DNA of 64,000 bases from Psammoneis japonica (lineage: Eukaryota): positions 310,001 to 374,000 of the forward strand of contig QPGO01000048.1 of assembly GCA_008632985.1 (NCBI GenBank), in the 5' to 3' direction. Shown here one piece after another: positions 2,322 through 31,640 of the stretch. Under the pieces are notes generated by a model. The model saw nothing but the letters and a program-made list of their open reading frames with translations. It was not told the origin of the DNA and made no database searches. A program made the translations under genes and the position numbers. Within the stretch, counting starts at the first letter, position 1; the number at the start of each line of letters is the position of its first letter.

Positions 2322-2580
2322 TGTCTTCGAAGGGGTTGTTTCAAAGCAAGATGACAGCGGCGGCACGAATCCGGCAGGCATTGTGCGCTGTGCGCTACGG
2401 TACACGGGGCGAGGGCGGTGGCGAAGGGCGAAACAGTCCGTCGCATGGACGGACGGACGGACGGACGGAGAACGCGTGGATCATTTTTATCTTTGACACC
2501 TGCTGATCTCTACAGCACTGCTAGCTAGAGAGTAGAGAGTGGCTAGCTAGCTAGAGAGTAGAGCTCTACTCTAGCTAGAG

Positions 2581-4110: not shown

Positions 4111-4362
4111 AAAAAAAAAGCACGCTAGCAGTGAAATGCTGCATCTGGAGTATAGTAGAAGTAAAATACCGAACCACCAACAAAAGCACGACAGGCACAT
4201 CCTTCTCCTCAAAAGACTTCATCTAGAGAGGAGGGGGGGGAGGAGAGAGAGAGAGAGTTCGAGAGAGAGAGAGCAACGCAACTCATGTGCACCAGTCAAG
4301 ATGCCATAGACTAGACTCATGTGGTATTCTTTCCATTAAATCTAACAAAGGCAAATATTTAT

Positions 4363-5574
4363 CTACAGGCGGCAGTGGATTTTCGCTTTGTTGGCGTGCG
4401 GTTCCTCGTTTGCGAGCGCACCAGAACATCTTGAGATCCTTCGAACAGCGTCTATGAACTTTGTCGCAGCATAATCCGACCAAGTCACAAACTTCACCTC
4501 TGACTTGGACATACAGAGCCTCTCGGCATAGATCCAGTTGAAGATTTTTGCTTTGGTATGCCCGACAAGAATTACGTTGGGGTTCGAAAGACAAGCCTGA
4601 ATCGCACCTCCAACACGTTCATAATGGCTTTGGTAATTGTCTAAGCAAAGCACCATGGTTGGAATTCCTATGCTCAAAGTGGTGATGCCTGTTTTTCTCT
4701 TTGCCATATTCTTCTGTTCAATGCTACTCTCCGTCACATCGAAACTGTAGTTCACAATCACAGCACCTGCGACGCAATTTGGGGTGGAGTTTGCCAGGCC
4801 TTCCTCATCTAAATACTTCAAAATGGCGTTTGCCCCCATAGAGTAGCCAACGAGAAAAACCTGACTGTCTCGCGGAAAGTCAGAGGAACAACACAGATGC
4901 TTGACAAAGAATCTGTTGAGTGGAAAAGAAGCACAGGTTTAGAGTTGTGTGCCCGATGGAAATAATGCAAGAAGGAAGTGCCACACTAACCTAATGCCGC
5001 TCCTGAGTCTTTCGTCGGGATCAGTATGGTTTGGTTGTACATCGAGCGTATCTCTCAATAAAGCGGCCGTCCAGCCATATTCAACGCAGACCCGAGTTAA
5101 ACTGTGTTGTTGCCGAGTAACGGAAATGCTTGCAGTTGGATCTGGAACGATAACAACTACGGGAGAACGAAGAGCTTTTTTCCGGACTTTGTCGGAAGTG
5201 GACTCTGGAAACGTCCACTCGACCTGTACGGCGCATCTTTCATCATTGATTGTTTCATTCAAGGTATGCCCAGGGAAGACCGCACGTGTGGGCTTCAACA
5301 GAGAGCTATTGATCAAAGCTCGAGTCCTACCGAGCAATTTCTGACGCAACCTTCGAATGAATACTGCCGTCATTAAAGAACACAGTGCATCGTTGCGATC
5401 TGTCTGTTGCCGCAATACGAGTGGTAAACATACAAGTTTCCGTTGCTGACGTCGCTCCGAAACCCAGGCCGAAAACAGAAGAAGGATGAACCAACGTAAC
5501 AACTTTGGATCTCGTTTCTCGTTGTCACGCGAGACGAGCTTTTCTTTGTCGCTACTGAAACTTCTCAAAGTCAT
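4363..5574 (-). CDS. ABHD1-3/YheT-like alpha/beta hydrolase, divergent or possibly degenerate; exons 5574-4991, 4912-4363
   Basis: Nucleophile elbow 'VFLVGYSMGANAILKYL' plus 'IPTMVL' and 'NPNVILV' segments. Intron 4990-4913 (GT..CAG) restores the frame. Confidence 0.6.
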
Positions 5575-6290
5575 TGGACACGTCCTTTTGTAACTCTCTC
5601 ACTCCACCGACTAGTTTCGTCGATTGATTCCGAGAGTTAAAAGGGTCAGGTAACTTGTAGTTCTGACATCCCCATCTATGGTATCTTATTGCTTCGATCC
5701 GCCATAGCCGCCGCCATGGTTGTGGTTTGGTCCACGGTTGGGTAGGCGGACGGACGGATTTCTGGTTCATCTCACACTCTCTTAGCTACCGTAGAGAGAG
5801 TAGTTTAGAGTCTCTCTCTCTCTTTCTAGCTAGCAAGGAGAAAGAGCCTCGGATAGAGAGAGAAAGTGAGTAGCAGCACTATACGGTAGATCAAATTTCT
5901 CTGTGGAAGTAAGAAGTCTTGTTTACTAATTTTCAACCTGATCACCATGTCTTTTCTCGAAGTCGCATTTCCTCTACCGGTAGCGGTACTGTGTGTGTGT
6001 GTGCTGTAGAGAGCTCTCTAGAGCTAGGTACAGGGAGACTGTATTCTGTGCAGCAGATAGCCTACAGTACTATGCAATAGTCTCACACTTTTCACCTCAG
6101 CTTGCCTGACATCGCAGCTAAGTGCAAAGTCCTAACATAGAAGGTAATATGAGTAGCTAGAATTTCCATTTCGTATCCTACGATGATGCGTTGACAAGAG
6201 GAGAGCAAATATTCAAGATGCCAGGAGTTCTCAATGAAAAGCTTCTTATCCCCCACACCAATAGTCCTACTATGCTGCATCGGAGAAAAC

Positions 6291-8908
6291 CTACGCCCTC
6301 AAAAAGAACATCAGCAGCAAACACACAAAGGCGATGAAAACCAAGTTGCGTGGTGCAGCGAGGAAGCGAAGGTTGATACGAAACCGCAACTTCCTGTGGA
6401 AGAAACTCTCTCGTGAGCGCCTCGATTGGAAAGAATAATCTCGCTCATCTTCGACTGTATGAGTAAGGCCCAGCTTGGAGTTGAGCCAATTGGAAAGACT
6501 GGTTGTTAAAGACACTAAGAAAGTACACTCATAGCTCTTCGTACAAGTGTCAATGTCGTCGCCAACGTATGAAATGTCCATAGGGTCACACTTGACTGTC
6601 CCAGAAATAATGTCTTCCTTACCACGTTCAGTGAGCATCCCATTGCTTGCTTTCTCGGGCATGATGCTTCGCACAGTACCGAGCTCTTCGCGCACGGATC
6701 GCTTTTTCTGTGTCTCGATGAAATCTATTGGAAAGTCGACAATATTCCTCGCCTGACCAATAAGTATCTTGATGGCTGATTCGTCGCTGACGCCATTGCT
6801 GAACCAGTGTTGAGATGAAAGCCGTTCTAGTATGCCCATTTCTCGCACTGTCTTCATGTGCTGCATGTATACCTCTTCCAGCAGAGTATGCATGTCCTCG
6901 CTACAGGATGACAAGCTCTCGTCTCCAAGGTACGGTGCAAAGTCTCCAAGAATCTCAGTATGCTTGCCAACTAAGGAAAACAACGGATGGTCCGGAGCAG
7001 ATCTAGATAAGAGCTGGTTGATGGTGTCAACCACGGGCTTAGTGAAGACCCGAAACACTCGCTTCAAGTGCCTCAAAGAGCGATGAAATTCCTTGGACGA
7101 GAAATCAAGTTCTCGGGCGCGCCGAAGGAAGATTGCCAGAGGTATTGTGTAGAGATGGAGGTTAGCGGCAATGAAGGGCGCCCATTTTGGGGCGTATCGA
7201 CTTGGTGAAGTGGCCTTTGGAAATGTCACCACCCCTACAACATCAATTTGTTGAGAAGACCGGGGTGACACCGAATGCAGAAAGTGTTTTGCTGTCGAAG
7301 GTGAAAACTCGGATACAATTTTGTTGCTCTTGCCTTTGGAGGTTACAAAAATCCAAAGCGAGGACTCGTGGTGTTAGTGGCTTCAAAGCAATGAACGAGA
7401 AACCGACAGAAAGTTGATGAACGCTGGAACTTACGCATTTCCACATTCCAGGGTTCCAGCCATACGAGCCATGCATTCATTGCCGTGAAGAAAGCTGAGT
7501 CGGTCACATGAATCGGAGCGTGACGAAGCGTCATCCGCAAATAGTTGTAAAACGATTGCTGCAAGATAGTCATCGAGGGGCTGATGCACCATTTGTCCGG
7601 AGAAGCCTGAGATGACGATGTGTCTATGGAGGACAGAGCCTCAAAAGTATCAAAGACAGCCAATGAGACAGAAGGGTCAGAAACCAGGTGGTTGACCACT
7701 CGTCGCAAGCAAGTCTGAACCAATGCCGGTGGTGCCGAATAATCTTTGACGTTTGTCATTTCAAACGATGCATCAAGGGTCAACGGCATTGTAGCGGGCA
7801 TCCCATGCAGTCGTCGGCGTTCTTGAATCGCCTTCGCTACGTCAACACTTTTCGGAAAGACATAATTGCCGTCAAACCAGAATTCGATAACCACACGCAA
7901 AAATAGCTCTGAGTCACGGCCTAATTCCGAAAATTCAAGAAATGGTGGTCTTGCCTTTCCGTGAGGAATTAGCTGCTTTAGATATCCTCGAAATAGCCTG
8001 TCGTAAACGCTCCTTCCATAGTGCGAAGACTGCTTTCTATAGACGATAGAGCTAGAAGCATGACGAGAGCTATCGCTGACCCTAGACGAAGGGCTAGATA
8101 GTCCCTGTGGCTGGGGCACCTTGGAAGGAGCTCTCGGGGTGGCAAGCGGGTATCTCACGAAAGTGATGAGATAGTACTCGAGCATACTTAGCATAATGTT
8201 GCAGGGTGCATCAGGCTTGGATTCGCCCTTTTGAGGGGAGGGAGGAGCAGGCGATGCAACAAACCCGGGACTCAGCTGCAGGGGCCTTTGCTGTAATTGG
8301 TTTTCGGCTGCCTTCTTCTGTTGGTATATTCTCAGGTCATTCTGGTCCTTCGGGTGTACACGCAATAGACTGCCCGTGAGCAGAAAGGCATTTTGGCGGA
8401 GCGGCGCTGCCGGTGGGGGGCCACCAAAAGAAGACTTGAGAAGGGCCAACATGACCTCCTGAGTTGGTTGCGGAAGCGCTTCAAACGGGAAGGCAAAACG
8501 TACGCCGGGCCGGTGCTCTGTTTCTGCAGATATTGCGTCAAAAAGAGTTGGAAGCTGCTCGCTGCTTCTTGTCGATCTTCCAGCCAAAAGCTGCACGACA
8601 GAATCATTGTCAAGCGAAGTCGCTTTTGATGAGTAAGAGGAAGGAAGTCCTCGGGGCGATCTTGCGGAAGAAGAGACTGGGGGGTCCCAGCGATTTTGTT
8701 GAGAGAGCCAACCGCCGGGTTCGTGGCGAAATTCGTCCTTGGCCTGCATCTGCCCAAACAAGCGCTGGCATAATAGAGGAAACAGACGAATGAAACGCGC
8801 TTCAGCAACAGAACCACCAGCAGGTAGTTCATATCTTACAAAGGAAAGAAGCGCACGAGCAGCTTCGGACGGAGAGACAGCGTTGTTGCTGAACGCTTCC
8901 TCTAACAT
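6291..8908 (-). CDS. Sphingomyelin phosphodiesterase 4 (SMPD4)-like protein; exons 8908-7435, 7333-6291
   Basis: Family-type motifs WLVWLEPW, W..FIAAN..LY, SYE..FLV and RINLRFLA followed by a C-terminal TM. Intron 7434-7334 (GTAAGT..AAG) is in frame. Confidence 0.78.
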
Positions 8909-9127
8909 TGTGTGCGTAGGAAGAAAGGCTTCGATTACTCTCTCTGTTTACGCGGCTTCTCCAACAAGGGAAGGGTTTCTGAACAGCCAATGAAACAGGT
9001 CGATCTGGTGTATCTTTTTTTTGTTGTTGTCGTTGTCATTGTGCCATGTGGCCTCAGTACAGACAGCAGTCGGTCCTCTGCTCGACTCGCCTATGGAGAG
9101 TCTACGGCCTTACCGGTACCGCCCGCC

Positions 9128-11738
9128 CACCCCTGTGGTAGGGGAGTTGTGTGTGTGTGCGTGGTTGTGCGCGCACGGCTTCGCCGTGCGTTGAGTTTTA
9201 ATGTTAATATCCACACGAATGTGTATATTCCATAAGTAAAAATTCCTATTCCACAGCTCCCCTAAAACTCTAACCACCAAAAACCGAGGGGTCGGAAGCG
9301 CACTTTCGGGAGCTCTTTTTCTCCGCACAAAAAACACGCGTTTCGTCGACTCGACCATGATGATGCCTCGTGGTTCTTCCCCATCGCCTTCCCAGGACGC
9401 CGATCCTACTGACACCGTTGCCAACAACACTGACACAACAGGCAATGTCATTGTTCCGGTTCTCGTGGGTGTGATGCGTACAAAATAAGATGCTACAAAC
9501 TCACACTGTTGTTTGCACGCTCCACCGCCTCCCACAGATGCCATCACGAATTCCAACGCCGTACCTGCGTTTCGGGCCCCTAGCATGCCCGACACTGTTG
9601 CTCCCACCCTCACTGCCGCAGGTGCTGTTGATGCTGTTGTTGCATTTTGCCAATGACGTCCACAATGAAATGCCAACAACTCACACTTCTTTCATTCTCG
9701 CCCCACCGCCTCCCACAGATGCTGTCACAAATTCCAACGCCGCACCTGCATTTCGGCCCCCTGGCATGCCCGATGCTGTACTCCCACCCTTGCTGCCACA
9801 GGTGCTGTTGATGCTGTTGTTGTCTTTTGCCAATGACGTCCACAACGAAATGCTTGTAACTCACACTTCTTTCATTCTCGCCCCACTGCCTCCCACAGAT
9901 GCTGTCACGAATTCCAACGCCGCACCTGCGTTTCGGCCCCCTGGCATGCCCGACACTGTTGATCCTGCCCTTGCTGCCGCAGTTGCTGTTGACACTGTTG
10001 TTGTTTTTGCTTTGGAAGGAACACAGTGGATGACGGATGACGGCGGACCAGGAAACCCACGCAACCACGACCTGCTGATGGACGACACATCAATGGACAT
10101 GAATGGTGCCTCTTGGTTGGCTCTCGAGTGCAGTCTAATCTTTAGAATTTACAGACACATTGTGCAGCTCTCTGCAAATTAGAAACCTGGTGACAATTGG
10201 ATGGCAGGCATGCTTTCACAGTTTTTTAGTTTCAAGTTGGAGAGGTCAGCGAATTGGCACTTGTTTGCAGGCGACTTGGCAAGGTTTCAAATGGTGCATG
10301 TGACTTGGACACTGCTCTGTTTTCCAGGACTGGGCCATTGTGTGCAATTCCACAAGAGGCCACTCTCGCCGTTTGAACTCTGCATGTGACGCACAACACA
10401 CTGTTTTTGCATGTTGCCAAAATGGAGGCAGGCAGCAACGTGCTTTTGGCAAATGCTCACTGTGTTTGTCACTGTCAGACCTTCAAAACCAGTGCCTTGT
10501 CGACAGCCATGCTGCCACTTTGCATGCCGGCACCTTCTCTGCCCGTGTTCCATTGGCTGCGTCCTCCTTCACATGTTGCTGCGGTTCATCTTGACACTTG
10601 TTGTTGGCTCCGATTGGTTCCGCTGGGCTCTGGGTGAGTCTCAATCACCTCCAGACAGACAAGGTTCTGCTTGGGAATGATCATCCTGAGAAAGGTCATC
10701 ACCATGCCTCCTGTCATAGATGCTCCTCTGCCACGCCCACTGAACCTTGACGTCGGTTTGTTGCTTTTGTTTTTTGACCTGGTTTCGGAGCTGCACCCCA
10801 GACCGTTTGAGAGAAGGCTCATCAGCACCTTCCACAACACGGCGATGCAAACGAGAATCCAGTTTCTCCGGGGGGACGGGTTCCAGTCCTGGGTGGGACT
10901 CCGTGTGACATTGGGCCCGTAGAATTCCACGTGCGAGCTCCGCAGCACGAGAATTTAATTGATGGATGTGTTCATCTTCAACATCAAATAAACTGCCAAG
11001 TTTGTGGCACAATCATGCCTCTTGCCACTCGACGTTTTTGCAAATGCGCCTGCCCTGCGCGATTCTTAAGACATTTTAGAATCGCGCTGCAACAAAAAAT
11101 GTCAAAAGTTGTTGGACGGATCGCTCAACAAGTGCACCACAAAATGACACAAAATGTCAAAAAAATCACGTAGAAATCTGCGTGCGCGACATGCGACGTG
11201 ATTCAAAAAACCATCGATGTCACAGTTCAGCAGTGCGAGGTCCCACCCAGACCTGGAACGCAGTCGGGGACGCAATGACAGGAGTGGACCAATCACGGCG
11301 CTGTGTTTGTGTTTCAGGCACAGGATCCGGCGAACAGAAGCCCAAATCCTCCGGATGGCAAATCGGCTGTGTTTGGGTAACGACAGCGGGTGCAACGGTG
11401 CCGGCCAATGCAGGAGGGACTGCCGCATCAGATGTGGCAGGCGGGGATGCGTCAGGTGGTGTGGGGGATGAAGAACGGGAGGTCGTCATGGTCGAGTCGA
11501 CGAAATGCGTGTTTTTTGTGCGGAGAAAAAGAGCTCCCAAAAGTGCGCTTCCGACCCCTCGGTTTTTGGTGGTTAGAGTTTTAGGGGAGAATGTGGTTCA
11601 GGATTTTTCCTGCTGCTATTAGCATTTGTGTACAAATGCATAAATAAATGTGAGGACATTTATATAAAAATATAATGAATAAGATATAAACTGCCACGTA
11701 ACCATGACATCACCATATTCTCCCCTACCACAGGGGTG
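9128..11738. mobile_element. Non-autonomous or decayed TIR DNA transposon with 19-bp perfect TIRs and a 9-bp flanking duplication (Mutator-like by duplication length)
   Basis: CACCCCTGTGGTAGGGGAG (9128-9146) / CTCCCCTACCACAGGGGTG (11720-11738). CCGCCCGCC at 9119-9127 and 11739-11747. Inner inverted repeats at ~9256-9360 and ~11486-11589. Confidence 0.85.
9499..10005. repeat. 180-bp tandem repeat, about 2.8 copies
   Basis: CTCACAC anchors at 9500, 9680 and 9860, with alignable units. Confidence 0.9.
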
Positions 11739-11747
11739 CCGCCCGCC

Positions 11748-11990
11748 CACCCCTGTGGTGGGGGAGCTGTGTGTGTGTTCGTGGTTGCGCGCGCACGGCT
11801 TCGCCGTCCGTTGAGTTTGAATTTTATTATTCACATGTATGTGTATATTCCATAAGTAAAAATTCCTACTATTAGCATTTGTGTAATGATGCATAAATAA
11901 ATGTAAGAACATTTATATAATAATATAATGAATAAGATATAAACTGCCACGTAACCATGACATCACCATATTCTCCCCTACCACGGGGTG
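11748..11990. mobile_element. 243-bp MITE of the same family as the 9128-11738 element
   Basis: Left ~120 bp matches 9128-9248 and right ~120 bp matches 11616-11738. Same TIRs with 1-2 changes. Confidence 0.88.
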
Positions 11991-14900
11991 CGTGGGTACC
12001 GCCCGGTAAGTTCTGTCCAACCTGCGTACGTAGAACGCGTGTTGCCATGGGTGGTCAACAGCCTCTACCGGTACTAAGAAGTAATCTTGACGGTGCGAAC
12101 TCCGCCGTTAAAGTATACATTTATTTATTTAGAAGTACTGTAGCAAGAGACCGACACGCGAGACTTCACACTCCTCATTTTTTCAAGGTTGGCGCATCAT
12201 TCATCAAAGCACCACATACCATGATACTCGGAGCGGCTTATTAGACTATTGACGATCCTTTCAACAGTACCCAAACGCTATCTACTTTACCTTTTTATAG
12301 AAACATCACGATGGAGAGTGAGAGAATGATGTGTACTTTACCGTGTAGATACCGTATAAAAAATATGTACCGTATGTATGAACAAACCTTCTTTTCGTCT
12401 AAAGCAGACTAAACTCAACGGACAGCCGTTAATAATAAAAATAGTACAATACGTATGACTTTATTTTCCGTTGAAGTGATATATAAATATTCCAAGCTTT
12501 TGAAATTTAAGGGACGGTGCGGAAATGTCCATTACATCTTTTTAAAAGTTTTCCACACGTTTTTTCTACCGAGTCTATGTAGTTCACGGGGCTTAAATAA
12601 CGAAAAAAACGGTAGGTATTTATCTATAGCCTTTGGCCCCAAATTACATCTTTTTACATTATATACGTATTTTTCCTACCAGATCGAGTAGTTCACAGGA
12701 AACAATTCCTTTTGTATCCGTTAACGAGAGATTTAAAATATTTTAAGTCATTAGTTGACGCGGCGTTGATCTAGCGCACGTAGTGCGTATTTATTAGACT
12801 GTGTATGCGTGTGTACGTGTGTGAGGTGTAAGTAGAATATACGTAGAATTACTACTGAGTGAATTGACTGCGGTGGATTTTCGGCCGGTACACAATTTAC
12901 GTGGTCTACATGGAAGATAAATTTATTATGGTCTGTGAGGATTTTACATGTCATTAACATTTCTTCGATCTTTCAAATGTACACACCCAAATTCAAAAAA
13001 GTGAGGAACACCCCGAAACACATTTTAGAATCTGCATTAAAAAAAATTCCATTTAACGGTCCGAACAGAGTCGCCCCGAAGCGCTTCTCAAAACATCTTG
13101 AGATTCAACACAGCAAAATGTCTGCTGTTGGCAAAACAGAGTCACCATGGGAAAAACAGATCACCGTCCTTCGCCGCGCGCAATGACAGCGGCACGATGT
13201 GGGGGACGTGAGACTGTCGAAGAAAGTCACGTAGATTTTGCACTAAAACAGTCTGTCAATCAGTGCGATTGGGTGTTTGGGACCTCTGGACAGATCCTGC
13301 GCATTTTTTTTTGCGTGCAAATTGCACTGGGAAAACCCCAAACGCACTGGCGATCAGACCGCCTTCGACGATCTCACTTCCAAAGACGCCCCCCAGATGA
13401 CATGCAACAACACCATGGCGAGCAACGTGAACGCCGCTCACTTGTCTGCCAGCTGGCATTTCCAGACAAGTTCAAAGCTGTTGGACAACATTTGTGCACT
13501 GTGTTCATGGGTCAAGTTGGGTTCCTTCTCGTTGCTTGTTGTCGTGTCTTTTTGCAACGTCTTGACCCACGCCGTGTTTTTTGCTTTGTTGCTTCTGCTC
13601 AATCGCGCGCCACCGAACAGCTTTTCCTGCAGGGTGTTGGCATGGCCAGCTGCTCATCACATCGAACCCAAACGTGCGTGACCAACTGGCCCCACCCCGG
13701 CCAATTCACAAGTGTGACAACGTCTTGTGACTGGTTGCGTGTGTGTGATGCGTCTTCTCATGCACTGGTGATTGATTCGCTTGTGCAGTGCATGCAGTGC
13801 AGCACCTGCCTGCCAGGACGTTGTCGACACAATGCACTGCACATGCTGTGCATTCAAACGCGGCAATGACCCCCAGGCAGTGGCAAGTGCTTCTGCAAAT
13901 CCGACTTGTCATAATCAGCAGTGACTTTGCCAACGACGAAAAGTGCCACCAATCTCAAGTGCCGGCAAGTCCCATTGCATCCGTTGCTCCTCGTCACTTT
14001 TGAGCTTCAACGCTGCTCCCACAACAGAACGACAACCGCAAGTGGCCACTGCTGCGTCGTCCATGGGCCATTCTTGAAACGAGAGGTCTTTCAACTAGAG
14101 TCAACGAACACAAGAATTTGGCAATGCCGAACGACTGGAGACTAGAGTGCAAGATGCAATGCACACATGTGCTGCAATGCATCACATTGTCGAACTGGAG
14201 TGTCTTGCACGTCTCTTCTTAAAAGCACCCTCTCTGTGAGGAAGAAGGTTTCTCTCACTTCATTGCAGACGCGGAGACGGGTCCAACTTGCAAGGATCAA
14301 CGCAATCCGTTTTGCACCCGCAACATTCCCAACGAAGGCGAACGTTCTCGGTGCCGGTGATCCACCGCAAGCTTTACGTCGTCGTGCCGAACATTGTGAG
14401 ACCATGGGTGCGGACCTTCACAAGGCACGCACGGTCGCGGACAAGTGTCAATTTGCTGCCAACCTGAAGTCGGGCCTCATTGTCAATGGCGTCTTTGCCC
14501 ACCAAAAGGATGTTCATGGATGAGAACACTTTGTTGTCGATGATGCCCATGGTGGATTCAAACACGAACACGTGGCTCACACCACATGCTCATGTGCACT
14601 TGGATTTAGGGTGCGCATTCATGAGGATTGTAGAAAGATTTGGTTGGACATGCTTTTCAACAATTTGGGTGCTCCATGTTTGGCAGTCAGGAAAAGGAGA
14701 CTGGCTGTAGCACCGGAAGTCGCGCTGCACAACTTTTACAATTAATTTCTTGTTTCGTGTTGCGAAAGCTTGGCACTCAGGTCCAGCACTCTCTGGTGTT
14801 TGCTGTCTCCACTCCAACCATGCTTGTGGCCTTCTTCTGTTGACCCGAGCTCGTGATGCCACCGAAACAGTCCTGGTTTGCTTGCTTTCATGTGCAACCG

Positions 14901-15123
14901 CACCGCATCTCTGCTGAGAAACGACCACACTTCTGCTTGAACCTCGAGCTCAAGATGGGAGTGTGTCAGGGTGTGAAGTCCTCACAACTCTGCCACTTCA
15001 GTGTTGAGACAAATGTTGAGAATGCCACAGTTTAGTTTGCTGCTCAGTGACGTTGCTGCAGTGCATTGTCACATTTTACATTCTGTTTGTTGCCCCGCCT
15101 CAAAACTCTGACTTAAATCCCAC

Positions 15124-16384
15124 TCAGCTGGACTTAGAGAAAACCCTGCTCAGCTCATGTTCCACTTCTTCGTCAATCCAACATGGGTGCAGGTTCAGAT
15201 TGCTTTCCACTGACAGCTCGACCCGGTCCTCTGCAGCAAATCGCATGAACCCACGCTTTTTGTGGACACGAGGGATCTCGCCACATTGAACAATCCAGGA
15301 TTCGTGGTCACCCATGGCACTGGCGTGCGGAATGTCGCTCAAGATTGCAAATTCATCTTCCGTTGGCTGAATGCGGGCAATGACATCATACAATGCAACG
15401 TCCTTGATGCTGGGCGACAAAGCACAGAAGCAGAGCTTGTTCAACTGCGTGGTGTCAATTGCCGCCACAACATGAGCAATCACCTCATCACGTTTCAAAT
15501 GCAGTGCCTTGCCCAACCAGTCGATGCCCTCAAGTGCAAACTGGCATCACCGATTGAACTGCGTGCGTTGCAAGGGGGATTGTGCAAAGCATGTGCGAAT
15601 GGACACTGAGCCGGGACGAACATTGAATGGGAGCCAGTGACATGCATCCCGCTTGTCTGTGTGGGCGACGGCCAAAGAGCTGTTTTGTTCAACAGGATTT
15701 GGATTGCGCTGTGCAGTGCCATTGTGCAAGAAATGATAAATCGCATCGTCAAACGCCACACCTGCGCGCTCCATCAGCCGAGCCCTGACATGGTGGCACT
15801 CGTCCCGGAAACAAGAAAAGATGTCGGTCATGCTGTGCCCAATGCAAGAGACCAATTCCAATCAGATTTTCTGGACTGTCCATCAGAGAACTCCGTAGAG
15901 ATCGCGGCTCAAATCGCTCCGCGCGCATCGTTGTGGGCACTGACTTGGGCTTTCGAGGCATTGGACGCTCCATTGCTGCATCGTTGTCGCTGGCATCGTC
16001 GTCTCCAGCATCGTTGTTGTTCGCATCATCTTCAGTTGCATCTTTGTCTGCTGCTTCTTCGACGATCTCCCCGTCAGATGACTCTCGTTCTGGAACACCC
16101 GCGACCGTGATGGGGTGGAGATTGGAAACGCCGCCACCGAAAAGGGCTTTTGTTGCAAGGCAATGTGAGCTTGTTTGGTCCTTGTGAATCGCCATGAACT
16201 GATCTGCAAGCTCCACATCCTTTTGAGCTTTTTCTTGGTCCCACTTCTTTTGTTCTCCCTTTCAACAATTGGCCGCTCTTCGTTTCGAGTCCCCCTCTTT
16301 CATTCGTTTGTTTGTGCGGTGCTTGCGTGTGGCAATTGCGCCCTTTGTTGTGGAGCAACTCGATCCAATCTTCTTGCCAGCCAT
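15124..16384 (-). pseudogene. Decayed TE-borne ORF of unknown function (basic N-terminus, acidic linker)
   Basis: ATG at 16384 (MAGKKIG...) leads past one stop into ORF 15749-16216, followed by ORFs 15547-15861 and 15124-15516 in shifted frames. Confidence 0.4.
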
Positions 16385-17954
16385 GGTGCTTTCTCAATCG
16401 CATTGAAGTTTTTGTTGTTCTTGTTGTTGTGACTGTGAGCCGAGAGGTTGTTGGCAATCGGCATCATCGAAAGTTTTTCAAAAAGCATTTTAAAACGTCT
16501 CACATGGTTTTTTGTCGTTTCAGTCCCGTTGCCGCTCACCCGCCACCCATTTTGAAAAGTTTCTGAAACAAACAAGAGAATGCGGAGAGTCATTCAACGT
16601 GCCATCCGCCTCTGCTGCTTGTTCAATGAGCTCATGCCAAGAGAGTGCTGGCAGATGGTGACATGGTTTGGTTTTCTTTTCATGCCTGATGCGTTTTCTG
16701 ATTTCCGTCATTGATGATTGATGCGGACAATGTGTTTGTAAAAAGCCTAAAAACGTGCATAAAAAGTCATTTTCCTTCTCCCAAATCTGTTTTGGAATGA
16801 CCGGACAACAACAAGAAGAGCCGGAGAAAATGTCCATTTGATTTTGAACGAGTTTTCCTGCCAGGTTGTCACAGAGAAATCGGGGCATCGAAGGAAATGT
16901 CCATCCAAGTGGTGCTCAGTGCTGCCTGTCCAACAGCAGTGCAATGCCATGCTGCCAAAGCTTGAGACCTCTGCAGCAGCAGCAGTGTTCACAAGGTGGA
17001 AGCCTTCACAAACTTCAGGCATTCTGCCCAGTTGCTGCAAAAAGCGCCCCATGAATTTTGGCTGTGTGGAGCTTTCAGGAGGTGGGTGCCATGTTTTCAC
17101 ACATCCACTTGCAGTCTGTGCTGAAATGGCAGCCCAAACAAGCTGCACAAAGGACAGCAAATGCTGAAACACAGGAGCAAGTGGGGATCAGAAACAAGTG
17201 GTGACAGTGCACACTGTGAGAGAGATGCAAGAACATTGTTTGGAGCAAAAAACCAAGTTGCAGTTGAAGAAAAAAAGGAGTCCCAAGCAAAGCTCACCTT
17301 TTGCTGCCATGACCCAAAAAGGCCAGTGCCCCAGGCACCAAATTTGGCAATGAGCACAAGTGTGGTTGCAAAGATCAATGACAACAATTGTGAAACCAAG
17401 AACTCTGAGGAGCAAGCACATTTTTCCACAAAACATTCAGTTGCGTGAGTTGGGCATTTGCTTGGCGCACACGCACAAACTTGCCCATGACCCAGAAATG
17501 AAAAGCTTTGCTGCAAGCTCATCTTGCACATCAAGGCATCACAAGCACTGCACAACATGCAGTGCTGCATGGGGGTTAAAAGGCTTTGTGCACAGGCAGA
17601 CACCAACAACCAATGGGCTGGGCAACTGCTGTAAAAGAAAAGCTTGAGAAAAGCAAAAATGGAAAGTGAGTCTGGACGAACGTCTGGCGGGGCAACAATC
17701 TGAGATGCGCACCAGCATGACAAAATTGCTGTTGCTGTGGAAAGTTGGATTTGTCTCATGCTGTCAATTGTTTGATGCAAGCACCACATGCCGGCATGTG
17801 GAAAACTGATGTTGTGCATTGAACCAAGCTGTGATCTTGCATGCTCACACAACACAATCTTGTCACCTGCCATGTGTTGCTTTTACCATGTGGCTCACCC
17901 CACTCATTTTCATCTCACTTGTTTTTACAATGTGAACAATGGTGCCCCCCTTTG

Positions 17955-20900
17955 CCATGGGAAATGATTGTCCCATGTGTGGCAAACGTTTCCTCCTGAC
18001 TGGTCTTCAACGCCACCCAAGAACTCATCTTCCCTGCTGCAAACTCTCCTTTTCTCACAGCCTTCGTGCCATTTCTTCCCATCAATCAGACACCGCTCAT
18101 GGTGAACAGTTGCAAATGAGAGAACTAGAAGAACCAGGGGATGTTGCTGCCTCTTCTGCCCTTGGCTCTCCTTCCATTGAATTTGTTGCTGCAGGGTCCC
18201 ACTCTAACACCGGGCCAACTCCACAAGGTTGCACGTGACTCAATCCCCAGCTGTTGCGATGCAATCATGCAGTTTTGTCTGTGCCAGAGTTGTGTTGTTT
18301 CCATGACAATGCCGTTTTGCCCCACACTGATGACATTTCAGAATGCCAGTTCCCTGACCATGAAGAGTTTGTTTCCGACACCAAGGGCACTGCTGCCGTG
18401 GTTGCCGAACCAGGCCCTTTTGCTGCACTCAATCAAGTTGAACACCTCTCCACTGACAAGGACCTTGTGGCACCCAAAGTTTGCAACAGCAAAACCATTT
18501 CCATGGCCCGCATGTTGAATCTGTGTCACTCCAAGGGTGCCCCAATCAGCGCAACCAACGAACTTCTGAGAACTGCACAAGAGGAATTCTCCAGTGGTGG
18601 GTTGTCTGTGACCCAACAAATTCCCTCTCCTTGAACTTTCATGTCACAGCTCAAGTCAGTGTTGCCCGGCGTTGTTGCTCCAGTGCTGAAGCAAGTCCCC
18701 CTTGAGTCTGTGTTTGTTGTCAACCAATTCAAAAACAACCTGCCGCAGGAGCTTTCTCCTGGCATCCCTGTGTGTGACTTTTCCCTTCAACTGCAGGACT
18801 TGTTTGACAATCCCCTTTTTGCAGATCTTTCCAATCTCAATGTTCCTCCTGATTCACGTTGGTCTCAGGTGATCTCCAGCAAACCCATTCTAGATGAGAA
18901 TGGTCACTGGGAACTTTGCAATGATGCTGAAATGAAGGATGGAGAAACTTGCAGCAACTCTTTGCATGGCTGTGATGTTCCTGCCACCCCAGGTTGCTTT
19001 CATGTGTTTGTTGTGTGCTGCGCCAACAAAACTGGGAAAGGACAGGTTGCACCTCATTTGATGAAGCCATTTGTTTTCTCTGTGACTCTCATCAAGGCAT
19101 GTGCCCGCCAATGTTTTGAAGCATGGCATCCCCTTGGATTTGTTCCGAAACACACAGGCCACAAAACAAAGAACCCCGTTTTGGGGATGAGTGTCAGAAA
19201 TTGTCACCACATTTTATCTTGGCCTCAAATTTTGACAAACAGTCTCCGGAAGAGAACTGTGATTGAGAAGAGGAAGACAAAGCCGTCATGCATGCAAAGA
19301 AGGTGAAGATGAAGCAGGCAATCCCAACAATTTGCTCAACGACCACGACGAGTCAGCATGTGAATCCAATGAACACCAACCAAATTCACAAGATGATGAC
19401 AAAGAGACTGACACAGAGAAAGCATCTCTGACAGACCACCCATGTTTGTCAGTGCAAGCTGTTGAGTGGTGATGCAGCGCTCTTGGCTGAATGACCAAAG
19501 CTTGGCCAGTGGGAAGTGTGTTGAGAAATCCATCTGTGTCAAGAGTCTGGAACAAATGATTTGTGTCAGTGGGAGACAACTCAACAGAAGAGACCTTCTT
19601 GCATGTCAAGGTCCTCTTGCTGGTGTGCTGACCGGGTTGGAAATGCACACGTTGCCAAGAGAATTTGTCATTGTTTTTGCGATCAAGTCCTGTCAGAAAG
19701 GGAGGGAGATGAGATGCCAAGTGACAAGTGGAACGCAACAATGACATGGAAGGTGCAAATGAATGTGGGGGCAAGGAGAGGGTGCAACCTGGCGAGAAGA
19801 AACAGTGACACTGTTGCTGTGTTGCTGTGCGACATTGTGACAAAAGTGCCGCAACGTGTTGAGAGGATGGGGCTGCAACTCGAGTTGGCACAAATGTCCA
19901 AATCAATGAAAAATGAACACAAAAAAATGGGCAACCTGTTTTTGTTACAGTGTGGTGATTTACATCAAAATTCTGTGTCAATCAAAAAGCAAAATGAGGA
20001 ATGAACATCAAATTTTTGCACTCTGTTTGAGTGATGTGTGAAAAAAAGAGATGCAGCAGTGCATGTCATTCATTGCAAAAAAAAAGGATGCACAAACACA
20101 TGCCCCAATCATTCCATTTAAGAACGCTGCACATTTCGTGGAGAAGAATGCCTTGGCCATTGCCCAATTTACAAAATTTCAATGTTGGTGACTGTGCAGT
20201 CAACTGCCTGTGCAGCTTCAACATCACAATCCAAAATGTGTGCATGATGCAAACAACAGCAACAGAGACTCAGTGCTGGCATCAAATGTGCATCTTCCAA
20301 TTGCAGACAGTGCAACATGCTGGGCAGCCTGGGATGCCTTTGCATTGACGGAAGGCACCCTGAGTGGGAGAATGCTTTTAAAAATGGATGAAGTGAACAA
20401 ACAAATGAGGCAACCCATGCTGCAAGCATTGAGAGAAGCAGCAGATCGAGACAAAATGTTGAAAATGCGGAGGAGTGACAACGGCAATCCCAGGTTCACT
20501 TTGATGTGGAGACACCGGACTGCCAGGCCAGCGCAGCATTTGCAAAGAGACCACATGGTCATTTTCCGGCCGCTCAGTTCACATGGTCAACTGGGTGAAA
20601 ACAGAGTGTGTGCCGACACGCGGAATTTCAATTTTCATGCTGTGGTGGGATTTGTGGATGGTCACAGGTTGAGCTTGCGCAACCATGTTTGGAGAGGTGG
20701 TTGAGCCAGAGCCGTGTCCGTTGCAAGGAACACATGGACAAAGTGACTTTGATGACACAGTTGAGCTGCTGCAACATGGAAATGCCAGTCAGTGTTGTGA
20801 GACAGCTGTCTTCCATGATTTTGGTGGCTTGCAAATGCAGAGACAAAGCTTGCAAGTTCCCAAGAATTGTTTGTGCTCTGCCACCTTGCAGACACGGTCT

Positions 20901-21200
20901 GTTCATCATCAGAGAAAATGCCATGTTGGACATGGTTCATCTTGATGTGCACAACAGAGGAAGGGTTGGCTGGCCTTTTGCGGACAATTGCTGCCCTCTG
21001 ACAGTGAGCAGAGATGTTGCATTTTACAAGAATGTGCTGCTGGGATTGAGGATGCACTGTGCAGGAATGCACGCTGTCCAAGAGGGTTGCATCAGTGGAT
21101 TGGACCAAAGTGTGGAGTGCTTGTTTTTGAATCATGCAAGTGCAGGTTAGAAAGAGCTGGACAGGACATCAAGGAAGGCAGAAGGGCAAGAGCCAGACCA
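17955..21200 (+). pseudogene. Plavaka-family transposase remnant with N-terminal C2H2-like zinc finger
   Basis: CPMCGKRF..GLQRH, 'IPVCDF.LQLQDL', 'CCANKTG' (cf. YxDKT), 'PFVFSV', 'AWHPLGFVP' (cf. AWRPLGFIP), 'RNCHHIL' (cf. RNYH) and 'RQ..R...LTGLE'. Several stops and frameshifts. Confidence 0.75.
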
Positions 21201-21856
21201 GATGATGAGTGAGAATTAAGCTGAAAGCAAGAAATCCTGGCCAGCTGTGACTTCTGCTCTAGAGTGACAAACCCTGGCAATTTTTAATGCAGTTGCAACT
21301 GTGGTCAAACAATGCTCTGGAGGTGTGGGAAACAAGCAAGAGATGGCTAAGAGCATGGGGCCCCAGACGGCAAAGCCAGGTCAGGCAGTTCATGTCACAA
21401 GCCGGCTAAAAATGCAAAAGAGAGTGTTCAGACTGCAGCCCTTTCCACAGCCCAAAAAATAAAATTAGCTTGTGATTTGAAAAATCTGGCATGCAATGAG
21501 ATGCAGTGGCATGGTGCTTCGTGCGCATCATGCAATGTAAAGTGGATGCACAATGTGAAGCAGCAAATGGCAAAAACTGCCATTCAAACAGAGTGCAAAA
21601 TTCATTTGTCAATGTTCAAAAATGACACATTTGAAAATTTTGGCATTCAGAGAGAGAGAGCAATGTCAAGAAGGGCAAACAGGCATGCTGGCAGGCACGG
21701 GTTGGGGTTTGATTCAGAGAGAAAAATTTGGGTGCAACAACACGGGAAAAGGGCAGGCAAACATGTTGGCATGAAACAATTCATCAGGTGCATGCATTGC
21801 GGCAAGAACAGCGTTGATGCACAAAGAAGTTTGCCTGCTGATGCAGATCATGCCAT

Positions 21857-22890
21857 GTGTCCTTCATTGCAGTTGGCGCCCATGACACAGCAGAGACAGG
21901 ACATGCATCCCAGAATGTGGAGATTGCGGGAATGTTGGTTGTCAGGTCGGAGGCAACAAAGAGGAAGTTTGTGGATGGCCAGACAACCAACTGTGTTGCA
22001 ATGGCTGTGTGCCCAAAGACCAAGTTCGTGATGCATGATGAGGTCAAGCTGGCTTTCGGGAGCAAAATGCAGCAAAAGGTTTGCAAACACCTCAATGTTG
22101 ACACCAGTGATTGTGCAGGTTGGTGGGAAGAGAACAAGGAGAAAGTGAGGAAAAGACCAAACAGGAAAAGAAACAACAGGCAGGAGGTTTTTAGAAAGAA
22201 GATGGTTGGCATGTGCAGCGAGGGTGGCGTGCAGATGCAATGGAGCAGTGTTCTCACCCATTGATTCTTGCTCAGAGATGGCTGGACACAAAGGAATGCC
22301 AAGTGTCAAAGAGACATGGAAAAGGGCAGGGCATTGCCACAAACACACTTTTGGTTCTTGGAAAGGTGCTGCTCCCTTGCAGCTGGAATGGAACAATTTG
22401 AGACAGCGGACAACCAAGGTGTCAGCAATTGGCTGACAACAAGTGTGGGGAAGCTCTTTTGCCAGGCTGATGTGTGACAACTGCTGCAACACAGCCATGG
22501 CTTTGAGGGAGATCAAAAAGCAGTTTGAAGAGAGAGGAGAAGTGCAACAGCCAACCCAGCCCCAGCCGATCCAGCACAATGTGGTGGCAGAGGAAGGAGA
22601 GAACAAACTGCAGCAGAGTCAGCACACAATGCCTGCAGACAAAGAAATCAGAGAGCACGCATGGCAAGAAAAGAAAGAAGAAAAAGAAGGATGGCATGAG
22701 GGGATGGGCTGCTCCAAAAACTGATTGGAGTGACAGCAAGGAGGAAGCTGCAGGAAGGAACAACAAACAGGGGAGTGCAGAGGAAGAAACTGCAGGGGCA
22801 GCAGCGACCAACAACAGCACTTTAACACAAATGGGCACTCAAGGAGGCAGAGTGAATGACAACCCACAGAAGCAGCTGAGGATGCCATGA
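21857..22890 (+). pseudogene. Accessory ORF remnant of the type accompanying Plavaka/CMC-like transposases
   Basis: 'VCPKTKFV...WWEENKEKVRKRPNRKRNN' resembles the FPxxKF...W...VR..LNxKRNN domain of such elements (recalled, not searched). Confidence 0.45.
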
Positions 22891-25800
22891 GCACACGGGC
22901 GGCATGACAGCAACATTTGCTGGCATGCAGCAGAACATGATGACAGCAGAGGAACTGACCAGGAATTCAACTCACATCAGCAGCAACAACAAAATGGAAT
23001 GTGAGTCAGGCATTGACTGGAGTGCAATTTTTCACACGGTGAAAAGCGACCAAGTGTCACACTGCAAAATGTTGGGAACATCATCCATGTGCTTGTTAAA
23101 TTTAAAGCACAGTTTGAAAGGAATGTGAGTCTGGGACTGGTCCAAAGGCACCGGCAAATTGTCACACGGCAAAAAGCAGCCAAGTGTTGCACTTGAAAAT
23201 GTTGGGAACATCATCCGCATGGTTGTTGTGTTTAAAATCAAGGACAAAAATCCACCACAGGGAGCTCACATCACCCAGCACCTGTTGGAGATCTCAGCTG
23301 ATTGGGAGCTCAAGTGCACTGAGAAGAGCAAAGGACTGTGTGGAACTCATTTCCAGAGAAATTGAAAGATGTCTTTGACAATTTGACAATGGTGGAAGGC
23401 AAGGAGAAAAGGTCAAATTTGGGCCCAAAGTTTGCAACATGGCAACATGGCAGCCAATCCAATCCATTTTCTGTCTGTCACACAGGATGATTGAGACAGC
23501 CCAGCACAAGCAAGGATTTGCAGGGCATGAGACAACAAAACTCCACAAGATTGCTGCAGTGTGATTGACTGTGTGTGTTTCATGTTTTCTTCAAGGAAAC
23601 TCAGCTGCAAATTGTGCTGGTCACCTCCAGTTTGTGATGAAATTGTCTGAGTCTGACAACCAAAGCAGCAGAGTGACAAAGACAAAAGAGCACATTCTTT
23701 GCCAACAAGAAATGACACCACTTTGGATCTGTCCATGGGGACACTTCCCAACATTGTGCTTTTTTGGCAAAGGGGACCTCCCAGGCAGGGACAGCTGTGT
23801 GTGCCAGTCAGCTGCACATCACCACCTGCTGTGAAGCTGTTGCTGTCCAGGTTTCTGGCACTGTTTGTGTCAGTGGAGGCACCAACACTGGTTTGCTTTG
23901 GCTGCCAAAGGATGGGGAGTCCATCAAAAGTGACAACTTGTGGCCACACACCAAGACCTTGTCACATGTTAAAGCACCCCATGGACCCCAAGAGGCTGCT
24001 TGTTTGCTCAACACACAACTCTGCAAGAAAGGAGCACAAGATGGTCTCTGAAAAAGCAAACTTTGCAGAACAAGAGAAGATTTGCAAACAGGAGGACAGC
24101 ATCTTTTTTGGATGAGACCACACAAAAGCTTGCAGTGAGAGAGACAAAGCAAGGAAAAAGGAAGAGCTGAAATCTGTGTTTTGAGCTGTCAAGCTGTCAA
24201 CATTGAAGACAGCAAGCAGGTTCACAAAAACAATTGCACCCCATGCAAAGGCAGTTTTTAGAGAAGAGATGGTGTCACAGATGGCTGGCTGTCATGCCCA
24301 AGAGCTGGGGCACCATTGCTTGCTGGAAGAGAAGACTTTTGGCTGGGACTTGGGACGAGCTCACAAACCTCACACAATGAAAAAGTGGGTGAACAACTTG
24401 CCATCAGGCACAGCTGTTCTGACTGCAGCATTGCACCCACTCATTGTTCAACATGTTTGTCACCTGACTGACAATCAGATGCTGGAAAACATTGCTGGCA
24501 AGCACTGACAAAAAAATGGGTGAAGGAGAAAGAGGCAGCAATCAACAAACAAAGTGCTGCAACAGGGAGAAAATGCTCTGAATTTGCCCACTGGGCTAAA
24601 ATTTGCAGCGGCACTTCACTCTCCTGACCAGCCAGACATTGAGCCTCTTGTGTTTCTGGGGTGTGCTGGTGCACAGGAGGTGATGCCACAAGGCAATGCT
24701 GGGCTGTCATCTCCAAATGCTGCTGCTGCCACCTGAGACAAGAAAAAAAGGAAACCACTGCCAGCCAGCTTGTGTCATTTGCCACCTTCTGTGGCCATGC
24801 ATGACAGCGACACATTGGTCTCAAATGTGCAGCTGTGTGCTGCAGTTGCTTGCACAACAACCTCAGCAACCTCCTCTTGCACCACAAACTTCACATCTCC
24901 AATGGCAAGGCCACTGACACAGGCAGAGATAGAGAGGAGAGAGCAAGAGAGCATGTGTGAGAAACACAGTGCAAGACAAACTGATTTGAAACTCAATGAC
25001 ATTGAAAATCAGCTCATCTGTCCTTCTCAACTTAAATTGTTTTGACACAATGGCTCTGCCCCATGTTGACAACAACAGCCAGCCACCAACAAGGCCACCA
25101 CAAAAGTCTTGCTCCTGACTTGGACCAATGCCATCATGCCTGCTGTTCACCTTGTGGCTTGGACAACCATCCAAACAGCAGCTCCTGTGCCTCAGCCACC
25201 AGCCACCACCCCCACCCACATTGTTTTTTTTTGTTTGGGAAAACTGGGGCCAGCAGATTGGCTGTTTGGTTCAGAGAGTTGGCTTTGGTTGATTTTTTTT
25301 GCATTCAAACAGTCTCTTGTTGTGACCACACACAAAAACAATTTCTCTTCAATTGCATCTCTGTGAAGGTGCCAATGGAAAAAAAATCAGGGCATTGCTG
25401 AGGCAAACTGAGGGTGGTTCGCACATTGGAGACTGGGGCAGAGGTGATTTTTGACACATTCTCTGTGTGGGCCATTGTGTGCTCTGTTGCAGCCAAGGAA
25501 ATGCTCTCTTCAAAAGCACACCTGCATTCATCATTCAATGTGAGCAATTTCATCATCAAAAAATCTTCTGGCACATGCAGCCAATCCACTGAGCCCAAGC
25601 TCTGCTTGCCACACTTGACAAAAAAATGTTTCTTGTTCATCAGAGAGAAAGGAGATGAAGGACTCAACCCTCCAGCAAACCCAAACTCAAATCAACAACA
25701 GCAAAAAGTTGACTTGTGTCACACTGGCAGACAAGCTGTTGGAAGATGAAAGCACATTTTGTAAGTTCTTGGTCCTCTCAGATGAGACAAACTTAGAAAG

Positions 25801-31400: not shown

Positions 31401-31640
31401 NNNNNNNNNNNNNNNNNNNNNNNNNNNNNNNNNNNNNNNNNNNNNNNNNNNNNNNNNNNNNNNNNNNNNNNNNNNNNNNNNNNNNNNNNNNNNNNNNNNN
31501 NNNNNNNNNNNNNNNNNNNNNNNNNNNNNNNNNNNNNNNNNNNNNNNNNNNNNNNNNNNNNNNNNNNNNNNNNNNNNNNNNNNNNNNNNNNNNNNNNNNN
31601 NNNNNNNNNNNNNNNNNNNNNNNNNNNNNNNNNNNNNNNN
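31401..31640. other. Assembly gap (240 N)
   Basis: Run of N. Confidence 1.

Follow-up and report, generated by a model that had tools for sequence, protein, structure and literature searches.

The 64,000-nucleotide stretch of Psammoneis japonica DNA analysed here (the window; contig QPGO01000048.1, positions 310,001 to 374,000) contains four tracts, one of them occupied by a Helitron, in which the dinucleotide TpA has been almost erased and in parts of which CpG has been lost as well. The pattern probably (at a rough probability of 0.6) reflects two separate mutational processes with different kinetics, acting on silent and mostly repeat-derived diatom DNA. The first would be a TpA-directed A:T-to-G:C hypermutation that turns TA into TG or CA on either strand and works in place on double-stranded chromosomal DNA; it would be near-complete within a tract and end in step-like edges, leaving a stretch either untouched or about 90% erased. 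The second would be a slower conversion of CpG to TpG or CpA, presumably by deamination of 5-methylcytosine on silenced DNA, with a decay that differs block by block according to the duration or strength of methylation. The region between 12.4 and 31 kb would accordingly be a patchwork: repeats that were never exposed (11574-13054), a stretch hit by the first process and little by the second (13057-16889), and older blocks with CpG observed-to-expected ratios (O/E) of 0.11, 0.27 and 0.07. Of this reading, the sequence shows the bookkeeping of the dinucleotides, the direction of the changes, their presence on both strands, the step-like edges and the nesting of CpG loss within TpA loss.

The best matches of the MATE transporter encoded at 40357-42054(-) are diatom proteins (Bacillariaceae, Cylindrotheca, Epithemia, and Attheya; 58-66% identity), which identifies the window as nuclear DNA of a diatom. 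Genes of the ordinary kind, with zf-UBP, MATE and MFS domains in Pfam, fill about 32-56.8 kb, and their dinucleotide levels (TA O/E 0.66, CG O/E 1.01) are taken as the starting state. Each pyrimidine-purine step (TA, CG, CA or TG) was treated as a trial, and edges were set by an optimal piecewise-constant partition, used instead of binary segmentation, which missed short tracts; profiles consist of O/E values per 1 kb, counts per 200 bases and 400-base windows (n = 158). TA edges were placed at 2576/2585, 4104/4109, 9271/9275, 11570/11574, 13054/13057, 31657/31662 and 56830/56834, and CG steps at 2475/2477, 4366/4370, 16889/16898, 23216/23218, 31331/31333 and 56352/56354. The TA-poor tracts are thus 2585-4104, 9275-11570, 13057-31657 (including a gap of 240 N) and 56834 to the window end. 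Within 13057-31657, TA makes up 74 of 4424 steps against a background fraction of 0.178 (binomial log10 P = -264).

The initial annotation had described a zonation, with TA kept at about 12.4-13.08 kb, TA lost and CpG kept at about 13.1-16.9 kb, and CpG lost beyond; profile, segmentation and P values bear it out. In the 1-kb profile, TA and CG O/E are 1.05 and 1.42 at 12001-13000, 0.06-0.15 and 0.75-0.85 at 13001-17000, 0.04-0.15 and 0.17-0.37 at 17001-23000, and 0.00-0.07 and 0.02-0.11 at 23001-31000, with a CA+TG O/E of 1.45-1.95 across TA-poor DNA. The TpA-intact stretch is real, but it begins at 11574 and not at 12400; it reaches 13054, is built of repeats and has a GC content of 0.38, a TA O/E of 1.07 and a CG O/E of 1.28. 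The middle zone (13057-16889) keeps TA at 23 and CG at 201 of 965 steps (CG O/E 0.81). The fall of CpG from about 17 kb is equally real, although it takes two steps, and a nearly CG-free piece of 0.55 kb (16898-17443; TA at none and CG at one of 132 steps) lies between the zones. The intermediate zone (17444-23216), a mosaic of moderately repeated pieces, has TA at 27 and CG at 90 of 1399 steps (CG O/E 0.27), and the doubly depleted core (23218-31400), single copy at a likeness of at least 80%, has TA at 24 and CG at 32 of 1922 steps (O/E 0.04 and 0.07). The right edge of the tract is concealed by the assembly gap (31401-31640). CG differs between the CpG-kept and the intermediate zone (Fisher p = 3e-25) and between the latter and the core (8e-13), while the short piece 16898-17443 differs from 17444-23216 (p = 0.003) and not from the core (p = 0.72). 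CpG O/E along 13-31 kb is therefore non-monotonic: 0.81 (13057-16889), 0.11 (16898-17443), 0.27 (17444-23216) and 0.07 (23218-31400). Among the other tracts, 9275-11570 is also in the middle state (TA O/E 0.15, CG O/E 0.71) and fills an inverted-repeat element, 2585-4104 is doubly depleted (TA at two of 365 steps, CG O/E 0.21) with normal DNA on either side, and 56834-64000 (minus strand), the Helitron, is in the middle state and runs off the window end.

The dinucleotide steps balance. Per kilobase, TA, CG and CA+TG amount to 43.6, 58.9 and 141 in the genes, to 6.1, 51.6 and 194 in the middle zone and to 2.9, 3.9 and 228 in the core, and the sum of the four steps is 235-252 in all zones. As the gain of CA+TG equals the joint deficit of TA and CG, the lost TA and CG have turned into CA or TG. 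TA loss runs several-fold ahead of CpG loss and is then at its floor: relative to the gene regions, the losses of TA and CpG come to about 77-91% and 19-36% in the middle-state tracts, to 89% and 73% in the intermediate block, and to 94% and 93% in the core. From middle to intermediate to core, TA per kilobase goes from 6.1 to 4.7 to 2.9, against 51.6, 15.0 and 3.9 for CG. Among the 400-base windows, the TA fraction is bimodal (below 0.06 in 72 of 158, at 0.06-0.09 in two, and higher in the remainder), while the CG fraction of the 72 TA-poor windows varies continuously from 0 to 0.33. CG-poor windows that have kept TA number none of 158.

The direction of change is visible in other copies of the same sequences. 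Logan contigs from one sequencing sample were aligned to 11500-31400 at a likeness of at least 80%, their depth serving as a rough copy-number class (about 75 for single copy). Among the variant rows listed (40 of 1380), 13 of the 29 tract-internal ones set CA or TG in the window against TA in other copies, and none shows the reverse; one of these sites (13302) is ambiguous, its next base differing too. The counts of CA and TG in four blocks (355/386, 635/647, 980/886 and 720/668) show no excess of runs, with runs-test z values of 0.5 for the Helitron (720/668) and 1.6 for the middle zone (355/386). Such equal change of both strands, without runs, argues against the editing of a single-stranded or RNA intermediate. 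At 13774, the single-copy contig of the run (depth 59) has A and the window G (TTAAT versus TTGAT); this TA/TG difference at a unique site may be allelic or a recent TpA change.

The Helitron at 56.8-64 kb is the sole element with an outgroup and the sole one identified by protein. Its open reading frame (ORF) at 61088-63904(-) carries Helitron_like_N and DUF6570, and the ORF at 58912-60324(-) carries PIF1 (Pfam; E-values 5.8e-20 for PF14214, 5.9e-21 for PF20209, and 1.6e-20 for PF05970). With a TA O/E of 0.06 and a CG O/E of 0.64, the element so located is mostly in the middle state, as had been claimed. Tyrosine accounts for one of 938 residues in ORF 61088-63904(-), compared with 3.1-3.6% in three homologues, and for one of 471 in the helicase ORF. 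Fifteen alignment columns have Tyr in at least two of the three homologues, and the window has Cys in five of them, His in five, Phe in two, and Gln, Gly, and Tyr in one each. Conserved Tyr is hence lost in 14 columns, ten times to His or Cys, which is the expectation for TAY turned into TGY or CAY, while CpG O/E still stands at 0.64. The copy is dead despite an open frame of 970 codons. A Helitron without tyrosine is incapable of its own transposition, so that this one was mutated after its arrival, unless it was moved by another copy. The 3' end of a Helitron consists of a hairpin and CTRR; here CTAG lies at 56829-56832, exactly on the TA edge, no convincing hairpin was seen by eye, and the 5' end is outside the window.

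Relatives of this Helitron in metagenomes all keep TA (80 of 80; O/E 0.45-0.80), and their CpG O/E ranges from 0.16 to 1.0; most have a GC content of 0.33-0.39 and a CpG O/E of 0.16-0.7, the ordinary state of methylation decay. As all keep TA and many lack CpG, the two losses are separable in nature, and the TA loss is a property of this genome and not of Helitrons. Together with the nesting of the windows and the tyrosine loss at a CpG O/E of 0.64, these relatives uphold the earlier claim that the loss of TpA differs from that of CpG and outpaces it.

The surviving TAs are not a random sample. Across 2585-4104, 9275-11570, 13057-31400 and 56834-63991, 121 remain of about 1241 expected at the TA density of normal zones, mostly as TTAA, CTAA/TTAG and CTAG: TTAA is 4.4-fold, CTAA 2.9-fold and CTAG 1.9-fold over-represented, GTAC and ATAC stand at 0.31 and 0.11, and ATAT is found in none of the 121 (chi-square p = 4e-23). 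In a two-strand fit, the A of T-A-N survives, per strand, at 0.73 before A, 0.41 before G, 0.19 before C and 0.07 before T, which would imply a mutator with the 3'-neighbour preference TAT>TAC>TAG>TAA. A small cluster of TAs at 21.0-21.5 kb is explained by their being nearly all of the TAA or TAG type. The same contexts distinguish resistance from lack of exposure. The stretch 11574-13054 (summed contig depth 640-5800 against about 75 for single copy) has 146 TAs, among them 16 ATAT and 19 ATAC; as these easily mutated contexts, erased elsewhere, are kept, the stretch is unexposed and not resistant. For CpG, retention in the low-CG tracts (2585-4104 and 16898-31331) is 0.06 in TCGA, 0.27 in CCGG and 0.32 in GCGC (p = 0.002), so its loss has a mild 5'-T bias.

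The edges of TA loss are steps. Counting TAs over 300 bases to each side of the six edges that can be resolved gives 14|0, 0|16, 17|5, 1|27, 26|2 and 18|0, the softer third pair belonging to the edge at 9273. The outermost 300 bases of the tracts, at either end, show no TA enrichment over the interior (all Fisher p > 0.2), and the TA level is even across fifths of all tested blocks. CG is also even, the exceptions being a U-shaped profile of the 9.3-11.6 kb element (p = 0.0017) and a slight increase along the core (position test p = 0.004); in the Helitron both are flat. The suggestion that TpA loss fades towards element ends is not supported, as the edges are steps everywhere and no block has a TA gradient. 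The inverted-repeat element, reported earlier as 9128-11738 with ends that keep TpA, has its inverted-repeat ends near 9257 and 11589, and the tract 9275-11570 agrees with it to within about 35 bases at the right end. TA is indeed present there, but mostly in unmutated flanking repeats; the four TAs retained in the termini (9263, 9271, 11574 and 11582) each stand in CTAA, which survives more often than other contexts. The flanks consist of two alternating units of 127-134 bases (9115-9248 and 11613-11991) that are TA-rich, high-copy and unmutated. Within the element, three tandem copies of 180 bases differ by CA versus TG at five sites, TA versus CA/TG at three and CG versus CA/TG at four, differences that bear on the direction of change and, at the CA-versus-TG sites, indicate hits on both strands.

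One edge lies within a repeat. A high-copy unit of 926 bases (12783-13708, plus strand), delimited by a contig joint from 13708 to 12783, is TA-rich in its left 272 bases (23 TAs by context count, seven of them in readily mutated contexts) and TA-poor in its right 650. One contig of another copy is colinear with the window over 12791-13142, depth is high on both sides of 13055 (1900-11200 at rows 12883-13650), and at nine sites between 13094 and 13554, among the rows listed and including the ambiguous 13302, the window has CA or TG against TA in other copies. The TA state switches between 13054 and 13094, and the TpA edge in this unit is thus sharp to within 40 bases. The half-mutated unit makes the strongest case here for a tract that ends within an element, and for tracts that need not follow element ends. 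As no contig of the run spans 12819-13672, ectopic recombination or a mis-join within the high-copy repeat could have produced this edge. The right end of the unit (13639-13708) recurs in inverted orientation at 57196-57267, about 360 bases into the TA-poor tract beside the Helitron.

Copy number at present does not decide the state of a sequence, since high-copy DNA at 11.6-12.0 kb (summed depth about 3800, TA O/E 1.07) is untouched and DNA that is single copy by its contig is erased, with the caveat that two old copies, each fully mutated independently, could fall below the likeness threshold of 80%. That erased DNA is covered by a single contig of 7922 bases (23204-31111, depth 74.7) with almost no other matches at a likeness of at least 80%. 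To its left, depth lies in the thousands from 11.5 to 12.2 and from 12.8 to 14.2 kb; it is 110-230 from 14.2 to 17.5 kb (in the middle zone beyond 14.2 kb, 1.5-3 times single copy), near 1000 from 17.5 to 19.5 kb, near 165 from 20.1 to 21.5 kb and 620-1100 from 21.5 to 23.5 kb; beyond 23.5 kb it is about 77-150. Of 121 joints and about 2100 contig pieces, 15 and 16 respectively were listed. These depths support a mosaic, and the CG step at 23216/23218 coincides with the change from repeated to single-copy DNA. The pattern along 13-31 kb fits younger, moderately repeated pieces within older DNA, and the best reading of the CpG steps is a mosaic whose blocks differ in age or methylation. Nested insertions of different ages, which the initial annotation had offered as another source of steps, thus suit the CpG steps better, given their non-monotonic order and the step at 23216, although no junction could be demonstrated at 16889. 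In the proposed comparison of zone boundaries with element junctions, the step at 23216 marks the change in repetition, while 16889 lacks a shown junction and the 13054-13094 edge falls inside a repeat unit.

Under the two-process reading, the blocks would carry CpG methylation and their CpG level could be read as age. In Phaeodactylum tricornutum, CG methylation of transposons depends on DNMT5a (PMC9998398). Three proxies of age agree: the middle-state Helitron keeps its 970-codon frame and Pfam domains, the intermediate and core blocks have no domains (200 ORFs), and detectable copy number is about 100 times single copy for the middle-state repeat, 8-14 times for the intermediate block and about one for the core. 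Decay of methylated CpG elsewhere resembles the CpG layer in that CpG becomes TpG or CpA, graded by block and strongest in the oldest-looking one (CG from 58.9 to 3.9 per kb with a gain of CA+TG), in the four sites at which the tandem copies have CG versus CA/TG, and in the many Helitron relatives, among the 80, that are CpG-poor and TA-normal. It differs in that it accounts for this layer only and cannot remove TpA.

The CpG level might instead mark methylation state and not age, the CpG-kept blocks having been silenced without cytosine methylation and the CpG-lost ones being methylated, so that all blocks could be of similar age. This is unlikely, although CpG is flat within blocks and stepwise between them, as a per-block epigenetic state would have it, and 13.7-16.9 kb has neither an intact ORF nor a domain to mark it as young. 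A difference in age predicts what is seen, namely a 970-codon frame with domains in the Helitron, as against none, and almost no detectable paralogues, in the CG-poor blocks; moreover, the middle-state tracts already lie about 20-35% below expected CpG (O/E 0.64-0.81).

A single deaminase preferring a 5'-T could erase TpA fast and CpG, best in TCG, slowly, the zones being doses of one process. CG-poor DNA is nested in TA-poor DNA with no exception among 158 windows, residual CG is indeed lowest in TCGA (0.06) and highest in GCGC (0.32; p = 0.002), and both changes share the product CA/TG. Residual TA density, however, hardly follows the CpG level, and the effect of context is about 5-fold for CG versus more than 40-fold for TA. 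Helitron relatives elsewhere commonly show CpG loss with TpA intact (TA kept in 80 of 80), and the hypermutated regions of Bigelowiella natans have 230 TpA changes and one other, with no CpG component reported in the part of that text available. One enzyme for both losses is quite improbable.

A chromatin- or pairing-defined domain, with TpA loss wider than CpG loss, fading to element ends and producing concentric rims, is also rather doubtful. In its favour are the edge at 13054-13094, which falls 272 bases into a 926-base repeat, TA being mostly kept in its other copies, and is thus no element end, the untouched high-copy DNA at 11.6-12.0 kb beside the erased contig-single-copy DNA at 23.2-31.1 kb, and the leftmost of the three tandem copies (9477-9656), which keeps five TAs versus one in each of the others and hints weakly that some 300 bases were partly spared. 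Against it, a gradient is found at no edge and in no block, the CpG order along 13-31 kb is non-monotonic, and the tract 9275-11570 coincides with an inverted-repeat element, give or take about 35 bases on the right, with its terminal TAs in resistant CTAA. The tract 2585-4104 is doubly depleted and abuts normal DNA on both sides without a middle-state rim, which shows that such a rim is not a general feature. No tRNA gene or Rfam RNA that might serve as a barrier was found in the window, hence none at any tract edge.

That the edges are insertion junctions of elements mutated beforehand, or of edited single-stranded or RNA intermediates, with the 926-base edge an assembly chimera or the result of ectopic recombination, is hardly probable: the edges span no more than a few bases, an inverted-repeat element is filled by one of the tracts, CTAG stands at the Helitron-side TA edge (56829-56832) and the 926-base repeat (about 100 copies, with no contig spanning 12819-13672) could have been mis-joined, but editing of an intermediate would be one-stranded whereas the gains of CA and TG are equal and interleaved, a Helitron without Tyr could not transpose itself, and the TA-poor DNA of 13057-31400 is continuous over pieces of very different copy number.

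Several points weigh against the two-process reading itself. CpG level as age is not separable here from CpG level as methylation level, and the TCG-type bias of CpG loss, with CG-poor DNA always inside TA-poor DNA, would be compatible with a single two-target enzyme as well. At 16889, the CpG step lacks a demonstrable junction: the nearest change in purine fraction, a measure proof against transitions, is at about 17120, and the single-copy contig that crosses the step shows only that both sides are unique. No tract but the Helitron can be assigned to a transposon family by protein, so the blocks are defined by statistics and contig depth. The context fit presumes that the original composition of the tracts was that of the neighbouring normal DNA, the contig sample is probably the source sample of the assembly and hence not independent of it, and the counts of copy variants rest on those 40 rows.

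The closest known system is that of B. natans, for which a preprint reports mutation-accumulation lines with 231 mutations in two viral inserts, 230 of them A:T-to-G:C and all of these at TpA, giving TpG or CpA (Mettrop et al., bioRxiv 10.64898/2026.01.13.699255). The inserts are integrated giant-virus and virophage DNA, one of them single copy, and an ADAT2-like adenine deaminase is proposed; the rate, measured directly and in only some lines, was about 1000 times background with normal neighbouring DNA, and TpA-poor clusters rich in CpA+TpG were enriched in transposon domains (bioRxiv 10.64898/2026.01.13.699255). By analogy, the enzyme acting in the window may be an adenine deaminase working on DNA. 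A:T-to-G:C change at TpA is found here too, in the mass balance of the steps, in 13 of the 29 variant rows listed, and in the change of Tyr to His or Cys in 10 of 15 columns. It is likewise confined to regions with normal neighbouring genes (TA O/E 0.66), although a mobile origin is shown here only for the Helitron and, by repeat depth, for some pieces. A single-copy target may have a counterpart in 23204-31111, which lies at single-copy depth, though two old copies, each fully mutated independently, could fall below 80%. The hosts differ, a rhizarian there and a stramenopile (diatom) here, as does the extent: TA O/E is 0.45 in the viral insert and 0.02-0.15 here, where the change is deduced from sequence and not measured in lines. 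That part of the text makes no mention of CpG, diatoms, tract edges or neighbouring-base preference (bioRxiv 10.64898/2026.01.13.699255). Nested CpG loss, step-like edges and the order TAT>TAC>TAG>TAA come from this window and not from that source, as far as its available part goes.

Other systems share less with the window. Features shared with repeat-induced point mutation (RIP) are context-specific transitions that inactivate mobile DNA in place, on both strands, in tracts that spare genes. RIP, known from Neurospora and other ascomycetes, turns CpA into TpA, raises TA, lowers CpA/TpG and targets duplicated sequence. The chemistry here is the opposite (TA O/E 0.02-0.15, CA/TG O/E 1.55-1.95), and duplication is not evidently the trigger: the repeats at 11.6-12.0 kb keep TA and low-copy DNA is erased. 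ADAR and APOBEC enzymes, which edit retroelement RNA or single-stranded DNA intermediates, also leave deaminase-type transitions that depend on the 5' neighbour (U/T before the edited A), with a bias to one strand and on the copied molecule only. Here both strands are changed equally, a DNA transposon is affected, and a tract spans unrelated pieces.

A TpA-aimed DNA mutator has been reported once, in a 2026 preprint on an unrelated alga, and no description of TpA hypermutation in diatoms was found in open papers and bioRxiv. The window adds that TA loss behaves as all-or-none, is ahead of CpG decay by about an order of magnitude, and is on both strands, bounded by steps and dependent on the 3' neighbour, properties that constrain the enzyme and its targeting. 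The edge inside the repeat unit keeps alive the possibility that borders are set by something other than element ends. It is tentative, and somewhat unlikely, that TpA erasure is a switch-like DNA-editing defence whose borders follow, for example, the edge of a silent chromatin domain and not element ends or copy number, with CpG as a slower clock and a deaminase that would act best on T-A-T, worst on T-A-A, and perhaps weakly on TCG as a side activity. If so, the pair of marks would date the silencing of each piece of the genome. The genetic tools available for diatoms make the mechanism testable there. For annotation, dead transposon genes that lack tyrosine and the stops TAA and TAG would yield long false open frames and failed homology searches.

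None of the 200 stop-to-stop ORFs of at least 60 residues (59 + 141) in 13-31.4 kb has a credible Pfam match, the few hits lying below curated cut-offs, and the same holds for 31 ORFs from 2.5-4.2 and 9.1-11.5 kb. DNA that lacks TAA and TAG should contain long open frames; the longest ORFs of the middle and intermediate zones lie within the range of shuffles, whereas a 445-residue ORF in the most degraded block (29289-30626, minus strand) exceeds the longest ORF of all 300 dinucleotide shuffles. This ORF lacks a Pfam domain, and 1.84 billion protein representatives include no homologue of it. A period-3 signal at 15.0-16.8 and 18.0-19.2 kb suggests coding remnants. A purine/pyrimidine codon score for gene calling separated the frames weakly and was left unused.

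For 13.1-16.9 kb, nucleotide self-comparison, comparison in a purine/pyrimidine alphabet and sensitive local BLAST found no terminal repeats and no similarity to the Helitron beyond a piece of 50-70 bases (13639-13708 versus 57196-57267), and Pfam has no protein domain that would identify 13-17 kb as a Helitron. A match by eye between 12.5 and 16.85 kb scored no better than shuffles. Purine/pyrimidine matches that could be target-site duplications around 17.45 and 23.2 kb occur at chance level only. Changes in purine fraction at 17750, 19250 and 22590-22790 lie off the CpG steps and neither confirm nor exclude junctions there. In the purine/pyrimidine alphabet, 17326-17526 matches 27981-28179 in inverted orientation, a likeness between the short piece 16898-17443 and the core.

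Two further stretches lie beside tracts. A short CTAG/GAGAG-rich one at 2522-2576, in which TA makes up 10 of 11 pyrimidine-purine steps, abuts the TA-free tract starting at 2585. Next to the assembly gap, 31869-32478 consists of CpG-rich tandem repeats (ACGAC 24 times at 31967-32086, and units of 10, 20 and 30 bases at 32359-32478), and CG O/E reaches 1.71 at 32-33 kb.

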